A stretch of DNA of 64,000 nucleotides from Bacillota bacterium (GCA_029570375.1 JAKPXB010000049.1:25046-89045); one strand, 5' to 3'; positions 42,673 through 64,000 are shown, counted from the stretch's first letter. The notes: a model not told the origin generated them from the letters alone. A program made the numbers and translations.

Positions 42673-43296
42673 TCAGGCTTCTTCCGAACCCCGGAGCAGA
42701 TTCTTGTTTTTCAGCCAGTAGTCCAGGCCGGAAAACACCGTCAACAGAACAGTCACGGCGACTAATATATCACATACGTAGGTCCAGGGCGTCCCGTAGC
42801 CGAAAAAAGGTTTTGCGGGGTCTATCCACTGAACAATAATCGGTTCAAACATCAGGGCAATCAGCGAGATGATCTGGAACAGCGTCTTGATTTTGCCGAA
42901 CCAGCTCGCAGCGATAACCACACCGCGGTCAACCGCAATCTGGCGGATTCCCGTGACGAGGAACTCGCGGGCGGCAATAACGACAATCACATAGGTGGAT
43001 ATTCTTCCAAGCGCAGTAAAAGCGACAAACACCGACAGAACGAGCAGCTTGTCCGCAATGGGATCGAAGAGTTTCCCGAAATTGGAGACAAGCCCCTGTT
43101 TTCTGGCGAACATACCGTCGAGCAGATCCGTCAATGCCGCTATGATGAAGAAGATCAGCGCGATGATACGGCCGGGCGCGGAGAGAATAAACCCCGAAAA
43201 CGCCGTGTCCTTCCCAAATGGAAGAGGCAGCATAAAAAACAATATGACCGGAATCATGATAATTCGTGATAGCGTCAGTTTATTCGCGATATTCAT
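42673..43296 (-). CDS. pgsA: CDP-diacylglycerol--glycerol-3-phosphate 3-phosphatidyltransferase
   Basis: CDP-alcohol phosphatidyltransferase motif [28 protein letters not shown]-terminus NKLTLSRI. Confidence 0.9.
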
Positions 43297-57341: not shown

Positions 57342-59702
57342 TCAGAAGTGGCGTTCGCTCCTCGGCTCACCGCGCCGGCTGCCACGTTCGTGTTCGCTCT
57401 CGCTGCTGCGAAAACCGCCTGAACGCCTGCCTTCACGGCCGCCGCGTTCGCCGTCGTCGGTGTGGCGGTCTCTTCTCCTGTCACCGCGATCTCTGCCGTC
57501 GCCGCGCTCCCTGCTGCCTCGCAGGCCGCGTCCGCCGCGGACGGAGCGTCCGCCGCGTCCTCCCCGGCCTTCCTCGTCGCCCTGTTCCGCGTAACCTTCG
57601 GGTTTATCCATCAGGTCGCGCATGGAGAGATTCAGTCTTCCCTGGTCATCGATCTCGCTGACGACGACTTTGACCTCATCGCCGACCGCGAGCACGTCTT
57701 CGACCCGGTCGACGCGGTCCCAGGCCATCTTCGAAATATGGACAAGGCCTTCCTTTCCGGGGGCGATTTCGACGAAAGCGCCGAACGTCATTAGGCGCGT
57801 CACAACCCCGTCAAAGACGGTGCCCGGTTCGGGATCGAACACGATCGCGCGGACAATACTCATCGCTTTGCGGCCTGATTCCTGATCGGTGGACGCGATA
57901 TACACGTGCCCGACAGGGCCGTCTTCCTCGACATCGATCTCCGTGCCGGTAAGTTCTGTGATGCGGCGGATCACCTTCCCGCCTGAGCCGATCACGTCGC
58001 GGATCTTATCGGACGGGATGTCGACCTGATCGATCTTCGGCGCGTAGGGCGCGAGTTCCGCGCGCGGTTCCGCGATACAGGGATCCATCGTCCCGTCCAG
58101 AATGCGGAGCCTTCCTTCGCGCGTCAGGTTGAACGCGTCGCGGATAATATCGATCGTCAGGCCGTCAACCTTAATGTCCACCTGAATCGCCGTGATCCCG
58201 TCGCGCGTGCCGGCGACTTTGAAATCCATGTCGCCGAAGAAGTCTTCAATCCCCTGGATATCCATAAAAACGAGATAGTTATCTTCGTTTTCCGGATCGA
58301 TAATAAGACCGGAAGAGATACCCGCGACCGGTTTCCTGATCGGCACACCGGCGGCCATCAGCGCGAGCGAGCTTGCGCAGACAGACGCTTGCGATGTGGA
58401 GCCGTTCGACATAGTGACTTCCGAAACACAGCGAATCGCGTACGGGAACTCGTCCTCATTCGGGAGGACGGGAATGAGCGCGCGTTCCGCGAGCGCGCCG
58501 TGGCCGATCTCGCGCCTTCCGGGCGACCGGTTCGGGCGGGCTTCGCCGACACTGTAAGCCGGGAAATTGTACTGATGCATGTAGCGTTTGCTGTCGCGCG
58601 GGTCAACACCGTCGAGGCACTGCGCGTCGCTGACCGTGCCGAGCGTACAGATAGTCATCACCTGCGTCTGGCCGCGGGTGAAAAGCGCGGAACCGTGAAC
58701 GCGCGGGAACAGATCGATGGCGGCGGATAGCGGCCGGATCTCGTCGAGCTGCCGCCCGTCGACGCGGCGGTGTTCGTTCAGGAGATAATCGCGGACGACA
58801 TATTTTTCAAGACTGTCGACAATGCCCGCGGTGTGCCCAGCGTCTTCCGGCTGATTCGCTTCAATAAAAGCCCTGACTTCCTCTGTCAGTTCAGCGACCG
58901 CGTTGTCGCGGACCGTCTTGTCGGCCGTGAGAACCGCTTCCCGCATCTTACCGATGAACGCTTCTTTCACCTGTGCAAACAGGCCTTCGGGCGCACTCTG
59001 CGAAGCGTAAGCAAATTTTTCTTTTCCGATTTCCTCTCGCATTTTCTCGATCAGAAGGCACAGCTCTTTGATAACCTCATGTCCCTTTTCGATCGCTTCG
59101 AGCATCTTTGCCTCGGGAACTTCGTTCGCGCCCGCTTCGATCATATTGATCTTCTTCGCCGTCCCGGCGAGGAAGAGATCGAGATCAGACGCTTCAAACT
59201 GCTCAAGCGTGGGATTGATGATGACTTCATCATCGATCAGCGCGATCTGCACACCGACGACCGGCCCGTTCCAGGGGATGTCGGAGATGGCGATCGCGGC
59301 GGATGTGCCGATCAGAGCGGCGACCTGCGGCGAATGATCGTGATCAACCGAGAGAATCAGGTTATTCACAACCACATCATTCCGAAGATCACCGGGAAAG
59401 AGGGGCCTGATCGGACGGTCAATCGACCGGGATGTCAGTACAGCGTTCTCTGTCGGGCGCCCTTCCCGCTTCAGGAATCCTCCCGGAATCTTGCCGACGC
59501 TGTACATTTTTTCTTCGTAATCGACAGACAGAGGGAAGAAGTCGATTCCCTCGCGCGGCTCTGTCGAGGCCGTCACCGTTGTCAGGACTGTCGTCTCGCC
59601 GTATCGGACGAGGACGGCACCGTTCGCGAACTGAGCGAGTTCGCCGGTTTCGAGAATTAAGGGAGCGCCCGTTAATTCCATTTCAAATACTCTTTTTGCC
59701 AT
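57342..59702 (-). CDS. pnp: Polyribonucleotide nucleotidyltransferase (PNPase) with an Arg/Gly-rich C-terminal tail
   Basis: Two RNase PH domains, a KH domain (GGKVIRRITELTG), an S1 domain (GAFVEIAPGKEGLVHIS), then an 86-aa RGG/RD-rich tail. The start is ATG 59702 with a GGAGGAAAAA RBS. Confidence 0.95.
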   Translation of the reverse strand: MAKRVFEMELTGAPLILETGELAQFANGAVLVRYGETTVLTTVTASTEPREGIDFFPLSVDYEEKMYSVGKIPGGFLKREGRPTENAVLTSRSIDRPIRPLFPGDLRNDVVVNNLILSVDHDHSPQVAALIGTSAAIAISDIPWNGPVVGVQIALIDDEVIINPTLEQFEASDLDLFLAGTAKKINMIEAGANEVPEAKMLEAIEKGHEVIKELCLLIEKMREEIGKEKFAYASQSAPEGLFAQVKEAFIGKMREAVLTADKTVRDNAVAELTEEVRAFIEANQPEDAGHTAGIVDSLEKYVVRDYLLNEHRRVDGRQLDEIRPLSAAIDLFPRVHGSALFTRGQTQVMTICTLGTVSDAQCLDGVDPRDSKRYMHQYNFPAYSVGEARPNRSPGRREIGHGALAERALIPVLPNEDEFPYAIRCVSEVTMSNGSTSQASVCASSLALMAAGVPIRKPVAGISSGLIIDPENEDNYLVFMDIQGIEDFFGDMDFKVAGTRDGITAIQVDIKVDGLTIDIIRDAFNLTREGRLRILDGTMDPCIAEPRAELAPYAPKIDQVDIPSDKIRDVIGSGGKVIRRITELTGTEIDVEEDGPVGHVYIASTDQESGRKAMSIVRAIVFDPEPGTVFDGVVTRLMTFGAFVEIAPGKEGLVHISKMAWDRVDRVEDVLAVGDEVKVVVSEIDDQGRLNLSMRDLMDKPEGYAEQGDEEGRGGRGGRSVRGGRGLRGSRERGDGRDRGDRRRDRHTDDGERGGREGRRSGGFRSSESEHERGSRRGEPRSERHF

Positions 59703-59911
59703 TTTTTCCTCCACAATGGTTTTCACGTACACAGCGCGGACAGCCCGAATAAATGGCAGTCCGGCAGATGAACAGCGCGTTCATCTCTGTACGGCGATCA
59801 GTTGAATGTTCTTTTGGGATCGGAATGCAGGCAATAGAGTGTAGAGTCCGCATCTCTCTCATGCGTAGAGAGGCGCAATCTACGTCCCACTGCCCGATCC
59901 GATACCGATGA

Positions 59912-59947
59912 CCATAGAAAGCGGCGGTCATGTCAGGCCGCCGCTTC
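59912..59947 (-). terminator. Hairpin after rpsO (terminator/attenuator in the rpsO-pnp spacer)
   Basis: On the minus strand, AAGCGGCGG-cctgacatga-CCGCCGCTT forms a 9-bp stem, followed by TCTATGG (a weak U-tract). Confidence 0.5.
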
Positions 59948-59957
59948 GATGCTTACG

Positions 59958-60221
59958 TTAACGTCTCAAATTCAATCGGGCGATCAGCGCACGGTAACGC
60001 TCGATATCATCCTTCATCAGGTAATCGAGAAGCGCCCGGCGGCGGCCGACCAGCTTCAGAAGACCGCGGCGCGAGTGGAAGTCCTTCTCGTGCGTCTTCA
60101 GATGCTCCGTCAAATGATTGATTCTCCACGTCAATAGCGCGACCTGCACCTCCGGCGACCCTGTGTCTCCGGGGTGAACCGCATACGCTTCGATGATGGT
60201 CTGTTTTGTTTCCTGGTCCAT
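59958..60221 (-). CDS. rpsO: 30S ribosomal protein S15
   Basis: [57 protein letters not shown] is present. Confidence 0.95.
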
Positions 60222-60298
60222 AATATCCTCCTATACTCCCAGTGACAGCGTAGGGGTCGGACTGTCCGCGAACGATGTCAGGGAAATAACCGCCCGCT

Positions 60299-60328
60299 AT
60301 TGTAGCACACGTGTACGGCTTCTGTCAC
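60299..60328 (-). promoter_or_regulatory. rpsO promoter GTGACA-18 nt-(TGc)TACAAT
   Basis: The minus strand reads cGTGACAgaagccgtacacgtgTGcTACAATagc. It gives a 5' UTR of about 70 nt. Confidence 0.55.
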
Positions 60329-60423
60329 GATCATTCCCCAATCTCCGCGCTAATTGGCTATTTTCAGCTATTTTCAATGCTTCAGACAGTAGTCTTTCAG
60401 AGATAAGAAGCTCTCTCCTGTCT

Positions 60424-62061
60424 CTATTTTACCCGTTTTAAAAGGAATTTTGTCCTGCGACGAGGCGGGAATACGGCTTTTTTCGGGGATTCCCCGAGAT
60501 ATTTTCGCGCGTCTTTGATAAAACTGGCGATAATCATGATAATAACAATGGCAATCGGGAAGGCGGCGATAATGCTGACGGTCTGCAGATTGTTCATACT
60601 CCCCTCGCTGAAGATCAGCCCGATCGGGAGAAGGATCAGCAGGATCGCCCAGAACAGTTTCATCCGGTTTGACGCTTCTTCGTCCTCTTTGAATTCTCTG
60701 TAGCTGTACTGGGAAGCCACCAGCGTAATCCCGTCAAAGCTCGTCGCGTAGAAAGCGATCATGGAGGCGGCAAGGATAATCAGCACGAGCCAGCTCAGGG
60801 GAAGCGTGCCGATGATCGCGATGACCGTCTGATACAGATCGCCGCTTTTCTCGAAGAAAGACACGCTGTCAAATTTTCCCATCACCTGCAACCCGAGCCC
60901 GTAGTTGCCGAGGACAATAAAAGAGATCAGCGTGCTGCTGACGCCGAATACGTACGCGCCGAGGATAACCTGTTTCACCGTTCTCCCCCGGCTGATTTTC
61001 CCCATAAAGAAAGGACTCGCGACACACCAGACCATCCAGTACGCCCAGTAGAATATCGTCCAGTTCTGCGGGAAATTCGTCGTCCGGAGAGCGTCCGTCC
61101 ACGTGCTCAGTCCGATAAAATGCTGCACCATGTTGCCGAAACCGGTAAACCCCGTTTCGACAATATAGCGCGCCTCGCCCCCGAACACCAGGACATAGAT
61201 CAGCAGCGCGCCGAACAGGTACATACAGGCATTGGCCAGCCACGAGATGCCCCGAATCCCCTTCAGGACGGCGAACGTATAGATCAGGCAGATCGTGACG
61301 AGAATCGCGATGGTGACATACTTGGAGCCCGCGATGCCGAAAAGGCTTGTAAGAGCGGCGGACAGCAGGGGCGTCGCGATGGAGAAAGTCGTGGCCGTTC
61401 CGGCGATCAGCGCGATTACGGCGAGAACATCGATGATCTTCCCCGGCGCCTTATCCGTCCTGGCCCCCAGGAGCGGGCGGCATGCTTCCGAGTACTTCTG
61501 TTTTTTAACGCCGCGCACGTGGAGCATGAACCCGAAGCACGCCGCGAGCGTCGCGTAGAAGCTCCAGGGTATCGGCCCCCAGTGAAACTGCGTGTACGTG
61601 CTCGCCCAGTCCTGCATACTGCCCATCGCCGCGACATGGGGCTCCTGCGCGTAGTAAATCCATTCGCAGAGAGAGAAGAACAGGATATCCGCCGCGAGCC
61701 CGCAGGTGAAGACCATCGCCCCCCATGTCCAGAAACCGTACTGTGGCTTTTCACCGGGTTTTCCGAGAGTAATTCGTCCAATATCCGAAAACGCGATCCA
61801 CAAAGAGACAATAAGGACGCCGAGGCCGATGATCAGATAGTACGCGCCGAAGGAGTCGCCGAGGAAGTTCCTGATCGACGAGAGCGTGTACGTGGACCCC
61901 TCAGGGCGGAGAATAAAGACGACACACAGGATAAAAATAGCGATGAACGGGACGATCGTCGTCCACGGATCGATCCTTCTCAGCCCCAATGGCCGCTGAC
62001 GATTTTTTTGATGGTCCATAGTATTCTCTTTCTTTAAGTACGTTTTATTTATCCCGATCAT
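60424..62061 (-). CDS. BCCT-family (betaine/carnitine/choline) transporter
   Basis: 12-TM protein with BCCT-type Trp-rich segments (FHWGPIPWSFYA, NWTIFYWAYWMVWCVASPFFMGKISRGRT). An alternative start exists at 62019. Confidence 0.85.
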   Translation of the reverse strand: MIGINKTYLKKENTMDHQKNRQRPLGLRRIDPWTTIVPFIAIFILCVVFILRPEGSTYTLSSIRNFLGDSFGAYYLIIGLGVLIVSLWIAFSDIGRITLGKPGEKPQYGFWTWGAMVFTCGLAADILFFSLCEWIYYAQEPHVAAMGSMQDWASTYTQFHWGPIPWSFYATLAACFGFMLHVRGVKKQKYSEACRPLLGARTDKAPGKIIDVLAVIALIAGTATTFSIATPLLSAALTSLFGIAGSKYVTIAILVTICLIYTFAVLKGIRGISWLANACMYLFGALLIYVLVFGGEARYIVETGFTGFGNMVQHFIGLSTWTDALRTTNFPQNWTIFYWAYWMVWCVASPFFMGKISRGRTVKQVILGAYVFGVSSTLISFIVLGNYGLGLQVMGKFDSVSFFEKSGDLYQTVIAIIGTLPLSWLVLIILAASMIAFYATSFDGITLVASQYSYREFKEDEEASNRMKLFWAILLILLPIGLIFSEGSMNNLQTVSIIAAFPIAIVIIMIIASFIKDARKYLGESPKKAVFPPRRRTKFLLKRVK

Positions 62062-62087
62062 CGACCGGTATTTTTCAGAACTTTGTG

Positions 62088-63887
62088 CTAAACAAGCTGT
62101 AGTCTCTCTATTCCTTCCGACGCATACCTGAAATAATCCTTCGCGTAGCGGTATTGGCGGAGACTGTAATCACCGAATTCCACACCGAGCCTGCGTTTGT
62201 ATTCACACCAGTTAGACCAGAGAAGACCACACACAGCGATGTAACAATAGATCTTGATTCTCGTCGCGGCATCGCAGCGGCCGTCAAAATAGATATCGAT
62301 CAGCCGATCCACCGCATCTCTGTCATAGAGGCTGTAAATACAGAACATCGCGATGTCTACGTGCGGATCCTGCATACCCGCGTATTCCCAGTCGGTGAGC
62401 TGCAGCTCCTCCGCTCCGTCTTTCATATAAAAAAGGAAATTATCAGGGACAGCGTCGATGTGCGTGAGACACCAGTCTTTCGGCTGACCGTCAATAAATG
62501 TCTTCAGACTCACCGCGTTCTCTTTTGTTTTCCGGTAGTCACGGTAAATGGAAGGGTCGCCCTCCCACAGTGATTCGTAAAAATCAATTTGTCCGAAAAG
62601 GTCAAATGTGTGCGGGACGGTAAGCTTCATCTCATGGAAATGCCGCAGCTTTTTCATGCAGCGGCCGATATCATCCGCGCTCCCGGCGTCACACACGCGG
62701 ACAGAATCCAGAAACGATGTGATCTTGTACCCGTTCATCGGGTTGATGTACACGGGATCGTCGCAGAGCCCCGCACCGCGGATCGCCTGAAAGACCGCGG
62801 CTTCATTCCCTCTGTTGATCAGCTGCTCTGTCCCTTCACCCGGGATCCGCATGATATACTTCTTTCCTCCGACGCTGAAGAGAAAAGACCGGTTGGTCAT
62901 CCCTTTCTTCAGCACCGATATTTGCTCTATATCCTGGGGGGACACATCGAGTGTTTCCGCGATCGTTCTGATCGCGCTGTTTTCCAGCTGATTTGAATTC
63001 GAATCGAGATCCCGCAGCTGTTCATATGAATTTATCTCAACAATCTCTGTGTCGTCTACAGTTCTTGCCGCCACAAACATCCGGTCTTTTTCGTGTAATG
63101 CTTCTTCCCAGAACGAGTCGTCATGACCGCTGTCCGCGATCAATCTCCGCACGTTCATGACGACCTTTTCCGCTTCCGGCCAGAGCAGATAGCTGATGCC
63201 GATCATACGGCTGCCTCCGCCCGCTTTGCCGACATCTGTCAGTTCCCTACGGCGGTTCACCCGAACGGCGCTGTCGCGGTCGATCCGATCGGAAACCATA
63301 TACCACGAATAGAGTTCCCGGCGCCGGAACGGATTCCTCCGGCACCAGATATCGCATGGAATAACGTATGTGTTGCCCAGCCGATCCAGCACCCGCGCGA
63401 GCGAATATACATTGTTTTTTAATGCGTATTCTTCGTTCACGACAAGTTCGACACCGTACGCGTCCATCAGGTATTCAAACTGGTCTTTCATAAAACCGAC
63501 GACGATGGTGATATCCCTGATGTCCGCGTCATGGAGCTGGCGGATCAGGCGCTCGATCAGCGGTTCTCCTCTGACTTCCAGAAAAGCCTTCGGTGTCGTC
63601 TGATTGATGGGAATCATGCGCATGCCGGGGCCTGCGGCGAGAATCACCGCGTTCCGCGGCGCATGTGAAGCCAGTGCCGTCCGCGCTTTATCCGTCAGCT
63701 GAACAAATTTTGTCAGGTAGCCCGCGCGCACCAGCGCGTGGATTGATTGGTTCACAGCGCCAAGCGAATGCCCTGTCACATCAGACAGCCTCCGCTGGCT
63801 GACATACGGCTCCAGAGCCAGCGCGCACACGACATCGGCTTCCTGTAATGACAGACCGCGCTTCCGTTTATCCTGACAAGAGTTCAT
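62088..63887 (-). CDS. Three-domain protein: MarR-like wHTH + LicC-like cytidylyltransferase + LicA-like choline kinase
   Basis: wHTH: RRLSDVTGHSLGAVNQSIHALVRAGYL. Nucleotidyltransferase motif: AVILAAGPGMRMIPINQTTPKAFLEV. Kinase motifs: LTHIDAVPDNFLF and TDWEYAGMQDPHVDIAMF. I took the start at ATG 63887, 9 nt after AAGGAA. The ORF-track start at 63896 is a GTG abutting the SD. Confidence 0.75.
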   Translation of the reverse strand: MNSCQDKRKRGLSLQEADVVCALALEPYVSQRRLSDVTGHSLGAVNQSIHALVRAGYLTKFVQLTDKARTALASHAPRNAVILAAGPGMRMIPINQTTPKAFLEVRGEPLIERLIRQLHDADIRDITIVVGFMKDQFEYLMDAYGVELVVNEEYALKNNVYSLARVLDRLGNTYVIPCDIWCRRNPFRRRELYSWYMVSDRIDRDSAVRVNRRRELTDVGKAGGGSRMIGISYLLWPEAEKVVMNVRRLIADSGHDDSFWEEALHEKDRMFVAARTVDDTEIVEINSYEQLRDLDSNSNQLENSAIRTIAETLDVSPQDIEQISVLKKGMTNRSFLFSVGGKKYIMRIPGEGTEQLINRGNEAAVFQAIRGAGLCDDPVYINPMNGYKITSFLDSVRVCDAGSADDIGRCMKKLRHFHEMKLTVPHTFDLFGQIDFYESLWEGDPSIYRDYRKTKENAVSLKTFIDGQPKDWCLTHIDAVPDNFLFYMKDGAEELQLTDWEYAGMQDPHVDIAMFCIYSLYDRDAVDRLIDIYFDGRCDAATRIKIYCYIAVCGLLWSNWCEYKRRLGVEFGDYSLRQYRYAKDYFRYASEGIERLQLV

Positions 63888-64000
63888 GAACATCACTTCC
63901 TTGCAATATTGTGAACACTATAGCGCAAAACAAACGGCGCGCACAATGACCCTTCCGGTGAAGAAGCTCCAGTTGTTTGAAAGAGATTTTGCGCGGGCGC

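Follow-up and report, generated by a model that had tools for sequence, protein, structure and literature searches.

A winged-helix LicC-LicA fusion protein, a BCCT transporter and a conserved pair of sites at the start codon: a candidate enzyme-repressor of choline uptake and activation

Results

A three-domain gene, a transporter gene and two sites at the start codon

A stretch of 64,000 nucleotides (nt) from a Bacillota bacterium (GCA_029570375.1, JAKPXB010000049.1:25046-89045), referred to here in its full length as the window, carries close to its end a pair of genes on the minus strand. The upstream gene (62088-63887, minus strand, stop codon included) encodes a protein of 599 amino acids (aa), in which a MarR-type winged helix-turn-helix (wHTH) domain is followed by a LicC-like nucleotidyltransferase domain and a LicA-like choline kinase domain. 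The downstream gene (60424-62061, minus strand), separated from the first by 26 nt, encodes a BCCT-family transporter of 545 aa, which matches the Pfam BCCT profile over its full length with 416 bits. A first-pass annotation of the window had described both the three-domain protein and the transporter gene 26 nt behind it; Pfam, PDB-sequence and fold matches bear out this description, and the motifs it quoted (LAAGPGMRM..PKAFLEV, HIDAVPDNF and DWEYAGMQDP) are present. The transporter also scores 404.2 bits against TIGR00842, just below the cut-off of 407.55, and none of the substrate-specific NCBIfam models matched it above cut-off.

Two sites of 10 base pairs (bp) lie at the start of the three-domain gene. 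Site 1 (63907-63916, minus strand, GTTCACAATA) agrees with the family consensus GTTCACGAAA at 8 of 10 positions and abuts a candidate -10 box. Site 2 (63882-63891, minus strand, GTTCATGAAC) is a perfect 10-bp palindrome, the central ATG of which (63885-63887) is the start codon of the gene. The start of site 2 lies 25 nt downstream of that of site 1, and nowhere else does the window match GTTCAYGAAM exactly. Read from the sequence, a Shine-Dalgarno (SD) element, AAGGAAG (63896-63902, minus strand), lies between the two sites, a layout that recurs in the relatives, and a candidate sigma-70 promoter (63917-63946, minus strand) comprises TTGTGC at 63941-63946, a spacer of 18 nt and TATAGT at 63917-63922. 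The -35 box is weak, and a consensus promoter scanner made no call at 63917-63946.

The open reading frame (ORF) of the three-domain gene can be extended to a GTG codon at 63896, giving a protein of 602 aa (62088-63896, minus strand). An exact look-up of the 602-aa form returned no match, the 599-aa form and the BCCT protein both matched contigs, and P0001, a database protein, shares 100% identity with the 599-aa form. ATG 63887 is likely the true start codon; the comparative data agree, since in the relatives the start codon forms the centre of site 2.

The N-terminal domain is a MarR-type winged helix

The wHTH domain occupies aa 11-74 of the 599-aa protein (63666-63857, minus strand) and was assigned using Pfam, AlphaFold2 (AF2) and Foldseek. 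The Pfam matches, at aa 14-63, are MarR_2 with 27.0 bits, exactly at the cut-off, and HTH_24 with 23.4 bits (cut-off 21.9). AF2 modelled the domain with a predicted local distance difference test score (pLDDT) of about 90, and a separate AF2 model, limited to residues 1-78 (pLDDT 84), shows three helices, then the wing and a fourth helix. The helices span aa 14-25, 31-38 and 42-55, followed by the wing and a helix at aa 66-74, and the LicC-like domain starts directly after. The best Foldseek matches are HcaR (root-mean-square deviation, rmsd, 1.2 Å), MarR, AdcR and MosR, with TMq values of 0.75-0.79; agreement with the DNA-binding MarR domains is within 1.2-2 Å rmsd. These data support the helix-turn-helix fold that the first-pass annotation had assigned to the N-terminus.

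The recognition helix, SLGxVNxS, hardly varies from phylum to phylum, and the mean column conservation is 0.645 in the wHTH versus 0.73-0.76 in the enzyme domains. To judge from these alignments, the domain is under selection. Searched exhaustively with HMMER, the 77-aa wHTH on its own found 137 weak matches; most of these were short N-terminal pieces of proteins from this family, and none pointed to a named regulator family. The wHTH profile searched against PDB sequences gave only weak MarR matches (E ~0.02) together with spurious designed armadillo repeats.

The site pair is conserved in genes encoding the winged helix

Relatives of the three-domain protein are found in at least 586 species-representative genomes. 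For locus comparisons we kept 80 of these related loci, and the residue and site counts refer to 82 family members. Sites 1 and 2 were found by aligning the DNA 5' of the gene across all related loci. In the family, site 1 (consensus GTTCACGAAA) stands just before the SD, and site 2 (consensus GTTCATGAAC) contains a central ATG, GTG or TTG that is the start codon. Both sites match at 7 or more of 10 positions in 73/82 members, the distance between their starts being 24 nt in 40 members, 25 nt in 32 and 31 nt in a single outlier. At a threshold of 8 of 10 positions, site 1 is present in 71/82 members versus 1.4% of random windows. Some members, including the protein of the window, have an N-terminus that is 9-12 codons longer, and in these the whole site pair is shifted along with the start codon.

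Searching the 80 loci on both strands (1.41 Mb) for matches to TGTTCACGAAA at 10 or more of 11 positions yielded 97 occurrences, 65 of which fall within -150 to +120 of the gene start. The motif is almost confined to genes that encode the wHTH, and it is missing from all six LicC-LicA fusions lacking this domain (0/6), which supports self-repression by the three-domain protein. The nearly invariant recognition helix, the confinement of the motif and its absence from the wHTH-less genes together suggest that the wHTH is the partner of the site pair. In 15 relatives a strong promoter has its -10 box ending 1-15 nt before site 1, the arrangement seen in the window, and in L050, L035 and L080 extra or inverted copies of the motif occur within promoter spacers or ahead of -35 boxes.

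The first-pass annotation had proposed that the protein is an autoregulator and had offered as operator an 8-bp palindrome, CAATATTG, placed at 63907-63914. The true position of this palindrome is 63904-63911, and the part of site 1 that it covers is just the non-consensus 3' half. The window contains one copy versus 0.72 expected by chance, the palindrome is not conserved in the relatives, and we rejected it as an operator. The proposal of autoregulation itself gains strong comparative support from the conserved site pair and is probably right, acting through a different and better supported candidate operator. We also considered sites 1 and 2 as the -35 and -10 elements of an alternative promoter; this was rejected because the start codon lies inside site 2.

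Several loci show additional features around the sites. At four of them (L060, L024, L016 and L063), ~55 nt before the start codon, three sites follow one another in a 24-nt register. The middle site of L060 and L024 has an ATG that opens an upstream ORF of five codons (M-K-E-R-K-stop), which may be left over from a change between the long and the short N-terminal form. At many loci (for example L011, L013, L014, L023, L034, L038 and L066) a GC-rich hairpin followed by a run of T residues, resembling a terminator, stands immediately before site 1, 10-25 nt upstream of it, and no promoter is evident between the two. This element could terminate the preceding gene or belong to a regulated leader. 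Further copies of the motif are located 56 nt upstream of the BCCT gene or at its start (L052 ~12696, L061 ~5342 and L027 ~12598), suggesting that the transporter may be controlled separately in some species.

The kinase domain retains the choline cage and the nucleotidyltransferase domain has a remodelled pocket

The LicA-like choline kinase domain (62142-62939, minus strand) was identified by its match to Streptococcus pneumoniae LicA (4R77) in a search of PDB sequences (aa 320-585, E 1.4e-28), by Foldseek (TMt 0.81-0.84) and by its retained residues; the Pfam Choline_kinase profile gives 52 bits. The roles of the LicA residues, including the aromatic cage that holds the quaternary amine, have been described (PMC4364537). 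The kinase residues D176, N181, D194 and E196 are invariant in the family, and the cage, Y197, W251, W254, Y268 and V178, is kept along with T29 in the window and in 77-82 of the 82 relatives. The choline-kinase motif is incomplete, with the substitutions N201 to Q, W205 to V and E213 to Y fixed across the family.

The LicC-like domain (63000-63653, minus strand) matches S. pneumoniae LicC (1JYK) over its full length in the PDB-sequence search (aa 82-299, E 2.9e-32), and Pfam NTP_transf_3 gives 56 bits. In the AlphaFold model of the whole protein, which has a mean pLDDT of 84, Foldseek superimposes this domain on LicC with TMt 0.85 and rmsd 2.7 Å. The LicC residues that form the head-group pocket (D105, W136, Y190/W191 and D192) and the metal ligands are known (PMC6697681). 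The nucleotide signature and the metal ligands are retained in the window and throughout the family: G14, R18, K28 and E216 are invariant, G16 is kept in 81/82 and D107 in 80/82 members. The head-group pocket is remodelled. D105 is replaced by P in 81/82 members, W136 by V in 77/82 and D192 by E in 82/82, so that the window and 77-82 of the 82 relatives have P105, V136, F190, W191 and E192 at these positions.

Both enzyme domains look catalytically competent because their catalytic residues are kept. The central domain is nevertheless a distinct subtype, the head-group specificity of which may differ from that of LicC, and for this reason it is not filed here as a proven phosphocholine cytidylyltransferase.

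The architecture is common and is usually accompanied by a standalone LicC-like gene

The first-pass annotation regarded a DNA-binding domain on such an enzyme as unusual. The number of genomes with relatives contradicts this: the three-domain architecture is common, and the protein of the window is an ordinary member of a very large uncharacterised family. Among the 120 homologues listed, all are either ~585-610 aa or ~830 aa long, and nearly all have the same set of Pfam domains, the helix-turn-helix included. The closest named relative among the matches listed (GTDB representatives) is from Aristaeella hokkaidonensis, with 68% identity. The 80 loci span Lachnospiraceae, Oscillospiraceae, Faecalibacterium, Blautia, Butyrivibrio, Erysipelotrichales and Lactobacillus delbrueckii, as well as Streptococcus porci, Trichococcus, Olsenella and other Coriobacteriales and one spirochaete bin; Lachnospira is also among the carriers. 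Databases give these proteins no name beyond 'NTP transferase domain-containing protein' or 'CTP:phosphocholine cytidylyltransferase', and a full-text search of open-access literature, in a library that is incomplete, found no paper on the wHTH fusion or on the site motif.

The usual gene order in the relatives is the three-domain gene, a standalone LicC-like gene of ~240 aa (62/80 loci; examples among loci L003-L080 are L010:11800-12520 and L029:11802-12536) and the BCCT gene (64/80). In 7/80 loci an EamA/LicB-like permease replaces the BCCT transporter, and no locus has both. The two permeases are thus mutually exclusive, which supports the BCCT transporter as the presumed importer of choline. 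A standalone LicA-like kinase is added in 6 loci, and some loci carry a full standalone set of LicC, LicA and LicB beside the three-domain gene.

The standalone LicC-like neighbour keeps W136 in 62/63 cases and D105, Y190 and D192 in 44-47 of 63. The proteins of ~830 aa (P0043, P0071, P0105, P0117 and P0120) consist of the three-domain protein with the standalone LicC-like protein joined to its C-terminus. Given the pocket changes, and given how often a canonical LicC is a neighbour or a fused part of the protein, the chemistry may be more than a simple duplication. The window belongs to the minority (~18/80) without a second LicC nearby, and nothing of the kind lies in the interval between its two genes (62062-62087).

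LicD genes are found near the three-domain gene in 27/80 relatives. In the loci with full coverage, LicD lies within 10 kb in 17/49, often directly upstream (PF04991, 136 bits), and around it are flippases, glycosyltransferases and TarI/TarJ-like genes. A subfamily of LicC-LicA fusions without the wHTH, ~530 aa in length, is situated in polysaccharide operons between LicD and an IspD-like cytidylyltransferase. Fusions of this type at L002:1574-3178 and at ~6001-7600 in L084-L088 have no GTTCAYGAAM sites.

The gene pair lies among housekeeping genes and no acceptor enzyme is encoded nearby

The DNA beyond position 64000 was read from a Joint Genome Institute (JGI) metagenome contig, Ga0116248_10000158 (118,680 bp), which is 100% identical over 13,577 nt and of which the window corresponds to positions ~25129-89128. 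A strain with 99.4% identity is represented by GenBank contig MTKY01051520.1. The first contig extends the view by 8 kb and the 99.4%-identical contig by a further 3.7 kb, in total ~11.7 kb. The 8 kb past 64000 encode a SpoU-type methylase, whose stop codon is 3 nt outside the window, L20, L35, initiation factor 3 (IF3), an amino-acid ABC transporter and a P-type ATPase. The flanks of the gene pair are thus housekeeping genes, rplT and the SpoU gene on one side and rpsO and pnp on the other.

No homologue of LicD was found in the window, in the next 8 kb or in the 3.7 kb beyond. The first-pass annotation had likewise seen neither a LicD nor a choline phosphotransferase in the window; its suggestion that a LicD might lie past 64000 did not hold over the ~11.7 kb. 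A choline phosphotransferase was also absent from the window and the following 8 kb, where the sole CDP-alcohol phosphatidyltransferase motif belongs to PgsA (42673-43296, minus strand; TIGR00560, 155.6 bits versus a cut-off of 109.1). We considered this gene as a choline phosphotransferase and rejected it, as it is PgsA and adjoins rimO. An acceptor enzyme for activated choline is not encoded nearby in this organism, and the pair therefore stands alone between housekeeping genes.

The GC content of the module is 0.538 versus 0.555 for the window. The lower GC reported in the first-pass annotation is thus marginal, with one 500-nt dip to 0.468, and we did not accept it as a sign of horizontal transfer. 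In the same region, the polynucleotide phosphorylase gene (57342-59732, minus strand) encodes a C-terminal tail of ~100 aa extremely rich in Arg, Gly, Asp and Glu (GRGGRGGRSVRGGRGLRGSRERGDGRDRGDRRRDRH...), which is unusual for a bacterial polynucleotide phosphorylase.

Discussion

The comparative data point to a two-gene operon for the uptake and activation of choline, or of a close quaternary-amine analogue, in which the enzyme would be its own repressor; we regard this as a probable reading. The regulatory cascade would run as follows. The BCCT permease would import choline, and the LicA-like domain, given its intact catalytic residues and aromatic cage, would phosphorylate it, so that phosphocholine is trapped in the cell. 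With cytidine triphosphate (CTP), the LicC-like domain may then form CDP-choline or a related CDP-alcohol, a step that is less certain with the changed pocket; in most relatives the canonical LicC partner may help with this step or replace it. The wHTH would bind both 10-bp sites, which bracket the ribosome-binding site, and switch transcription of the operon off. A pathway metabolite bound in the enzyme domains probably governs DNA binding, a speculative step drawn by analogy with NadR and BirA.

Import and activation of choline are the best reading of the role of the pair, judging from the retained cage and from the BCCT gene that accompanies most relatives. This part of the first-pass prediction is supported; its second part, conversion to CDP-choline, is less secure, as the pocket is remodelled and a canonical LicC is missing here. 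The product could be used in decoration by a LicD-type enzyme, by analogy with the 27 relatives that have a linked LicD, or in lipid synthesis as in Treponema denticola (PMC8590670).

Some observations weigh against this interpretation. We infer binding of the wHTH to the sites from their co-occurrence only, and the wHTH-less genes that serve as controls are operon-internal, which is a confound. At ~65 aa, the wHTH lacks the N- and C-terminal dimerisation helices of MarR proteins, and a classical MarR dimer would need more than a palindrome of 10 bp. As for the chemistry, the loss of D105, W136 and D192 relative to S. pneumoniae LicC means that the substrate of the central domain could differ from phosphocholine; the three departures from the choline-kinase motif likewise leave room for a kinase substrate that could differ from choline, and no acceptor enzyme is encoded in the window or in the ~11.7 kb beyond. 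The gene-like orientation of the sites and their geometry, which is fixed relative to the start codon, would also suit a mechanism at the level of messenger RNA (mRNA).

In such a mechanism, pairing between sites 1 and 2 would hide the start codon, or the protein would bind its own messenger and block translation. The position of the sites is set by the start codon and the SD and not by the promoter, 60/65 of them are on the coding strand, and in ~24 relatives the best promoter is 39-88 nt upstream, so that the sites fall within the transcribed leader. In the minimum-energy fold, base pairs form between the 5' half of site 1 and the 3' half of site 2 at 64/73 loci, and the fold of the window reaches -9.1 kcal/mol (z = -2.2). 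The reliable pairing is limited, however, to 5-6 bp, with positions 6-10 often mismatched and no compensatory change; the fold energy has a median of -4.1 kcal/mol and z averages -1.1, and Rfam, searched with permissive thresholds over 59500-64000, gave no match. Sequence conservation extends well past the paired bases, and the dyad symmetry of site 2 is typical of double-stranded DNA recognition. In addition, some copies of the motif reside in promoter DNA that is not transcribed, and a transcript started from the -10 box of the window, which directly adjoins site 1, would be missing some of this site. We hold action of the sites in mRNA to be quite unlikely and lean, with some confidence, towards a DNA operator formed by the site pair. 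A bolder variant, prompted by the start-codon-centred geometry, would have the winged helix itself act on mRNA.

It is very unlikely that the protein is an enzyme only, with the wHTH serving oligomerisation or partner binding and the sites being bound by another factor or acting as a promoter or translation signal. Such a role would fit the Pfam scores of the wHTH, which are just at threshold, the missing MarR dimerisation helices and the database names, which speak only of an NTP transferase domain. It is hard to reconcile with a recognition helix that is nearly invariant across phyla, with the close structural agreement with DNA-binding MarR domains, and with sites that occur almost only at wHTH-encoding genes and are missing in 6/6 paralogues without the domain.

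A further alternative concerns the central domain, which might be mainly a ligand sensor or act on another phospho-alcohol, rather than being the phosphocholine cytidylyltransferase of the pathway. In the window the module would then only trap choline as phosphocholine or handle another quaternary amine, and autoregulation would be compatible with either case. The family-wide changes D105 to P, W136 to V and D192 to E, next to a standalone neighbour with a canonical pocket, are consistent with this, as are the canonical LicC partner adjacent in 62/80 loci or fused in the ~830-aa proteins and the loci with complete standalone LicC, LicA and LicB. The retention of G14, G16, R18, K28, D107 and E216 in 80-82 of 82 members argues for catalysis by the central domain, and ~18/80 loci, the window included, have no second LicC nearby. 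We consider this alternative unlikely.

Returning to the enzyme-repressor, its wider implication is that gut and rumen Firmicutes, Coriobacteriia and some spirochaetes would share a large family of trifunctional wHTH-LicC-LicA proteins, at once enzymes and repressors. These would sense the flux of choline activation and switch off their own production and the import of choline through a two-site operator (GTTCACGAAA and GTTCATGAAC, starts 24-25 nt apart) placed around the ribosome-binding site and the start codon; we give this generalisation an even chance. The phosphocholine pathway is well studied in respiratory pathogens, and its control is poorly known. How the host recognises bacteria is shaped by phosphocholine on their surface, for example by way of C-reactive protein, natural antibodies and the platelet-activating factor (PAF) receptor, and in the gut choline is a nutrient under competition. 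The commonest form of the enzyme in gut commensals such as Faecalibacterium prausnitzii, Lachnospira eligens and Blautia carries a DNA-binding domain and a sharply conserved candidate operator, which provides a directly testable model for how choline uptake and activation may be set and a motif with which a regulon can be sought in any genome. The novelty lies in this family-wide enzyme-repressor design and in the start-codon-centred candidate operator, not in the locus of the window. If the model is true, the protein would be a choline counterpart of NadR and would join the enzymes that also act as their own repressors.

Compared with LicC and LicA of the lic1 loci of S. pneumoniae and Haemophilus, the two enzyme domains have the same folds and catalytic residues, with ~33% identity to LicC and 29% to LicA over the full domains and TM values of 0.81-0.85, and, as in lic1, the genes of many relatives stand beside LicD and polysaccharide or teichoic-acid genes. 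Unlike in lic1, both enzymes are fused in one chain behind a winged helix, the transporter is of the BCCT type and not an EamA-type LicB, no LicD is linked in this organism, and substitutions peculiar to the family are found in the LicC pocket and at three positions of the choline-kinase motif.

A fusion in the same LicC-LicA order is LicCA of T. denticola, described as converting choline to CDP-choline for phosphatidylcholine synthesis (Kent et al. 2004, cited in PMC8590670). As far as that description goes, the likeness covers the LicC-LicA part, and the T. denticola pathway needs a choline phosphotransferase, whereas the only CDP-alcohol transferase of the window is PgsA.

The arrangement recalls NadR of enterobacteria, in which a helix-turn-helix, a nicotinamide mononucleotide (NMN) adenylyltransferase and a ribosylnicotinamide kinase are combined and which represses nadA-pnuC (PMC7221760). 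The domain order is the same, DNA-binding domain, nucleotidyltransferase and kinase; in both cases the kinase traps, or here would trap, an imported vitamin-like compound, and the operon includes a transporter. The two proteins are not homologous: the type of helix-turn-helix, the kinase fold and the transporter family differ, and regulation by the protein described here is inferred.

A winged helix fused to an enzyme is also found in BirA, which joins a wHTH to biotin ligase and in which the enzyme's own adenylated product is the corepressor; its chemistry is unrelated. Regulators of the GbsR/OpuAR type, MarR proteins of Bacillus, control choline and betaine transport genes in response to choline. 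They are small dimers that stand alone and bind the ligand themselves, unlike the present protein, in which a bare wHTH is attached to the enzymes that would act on choline.

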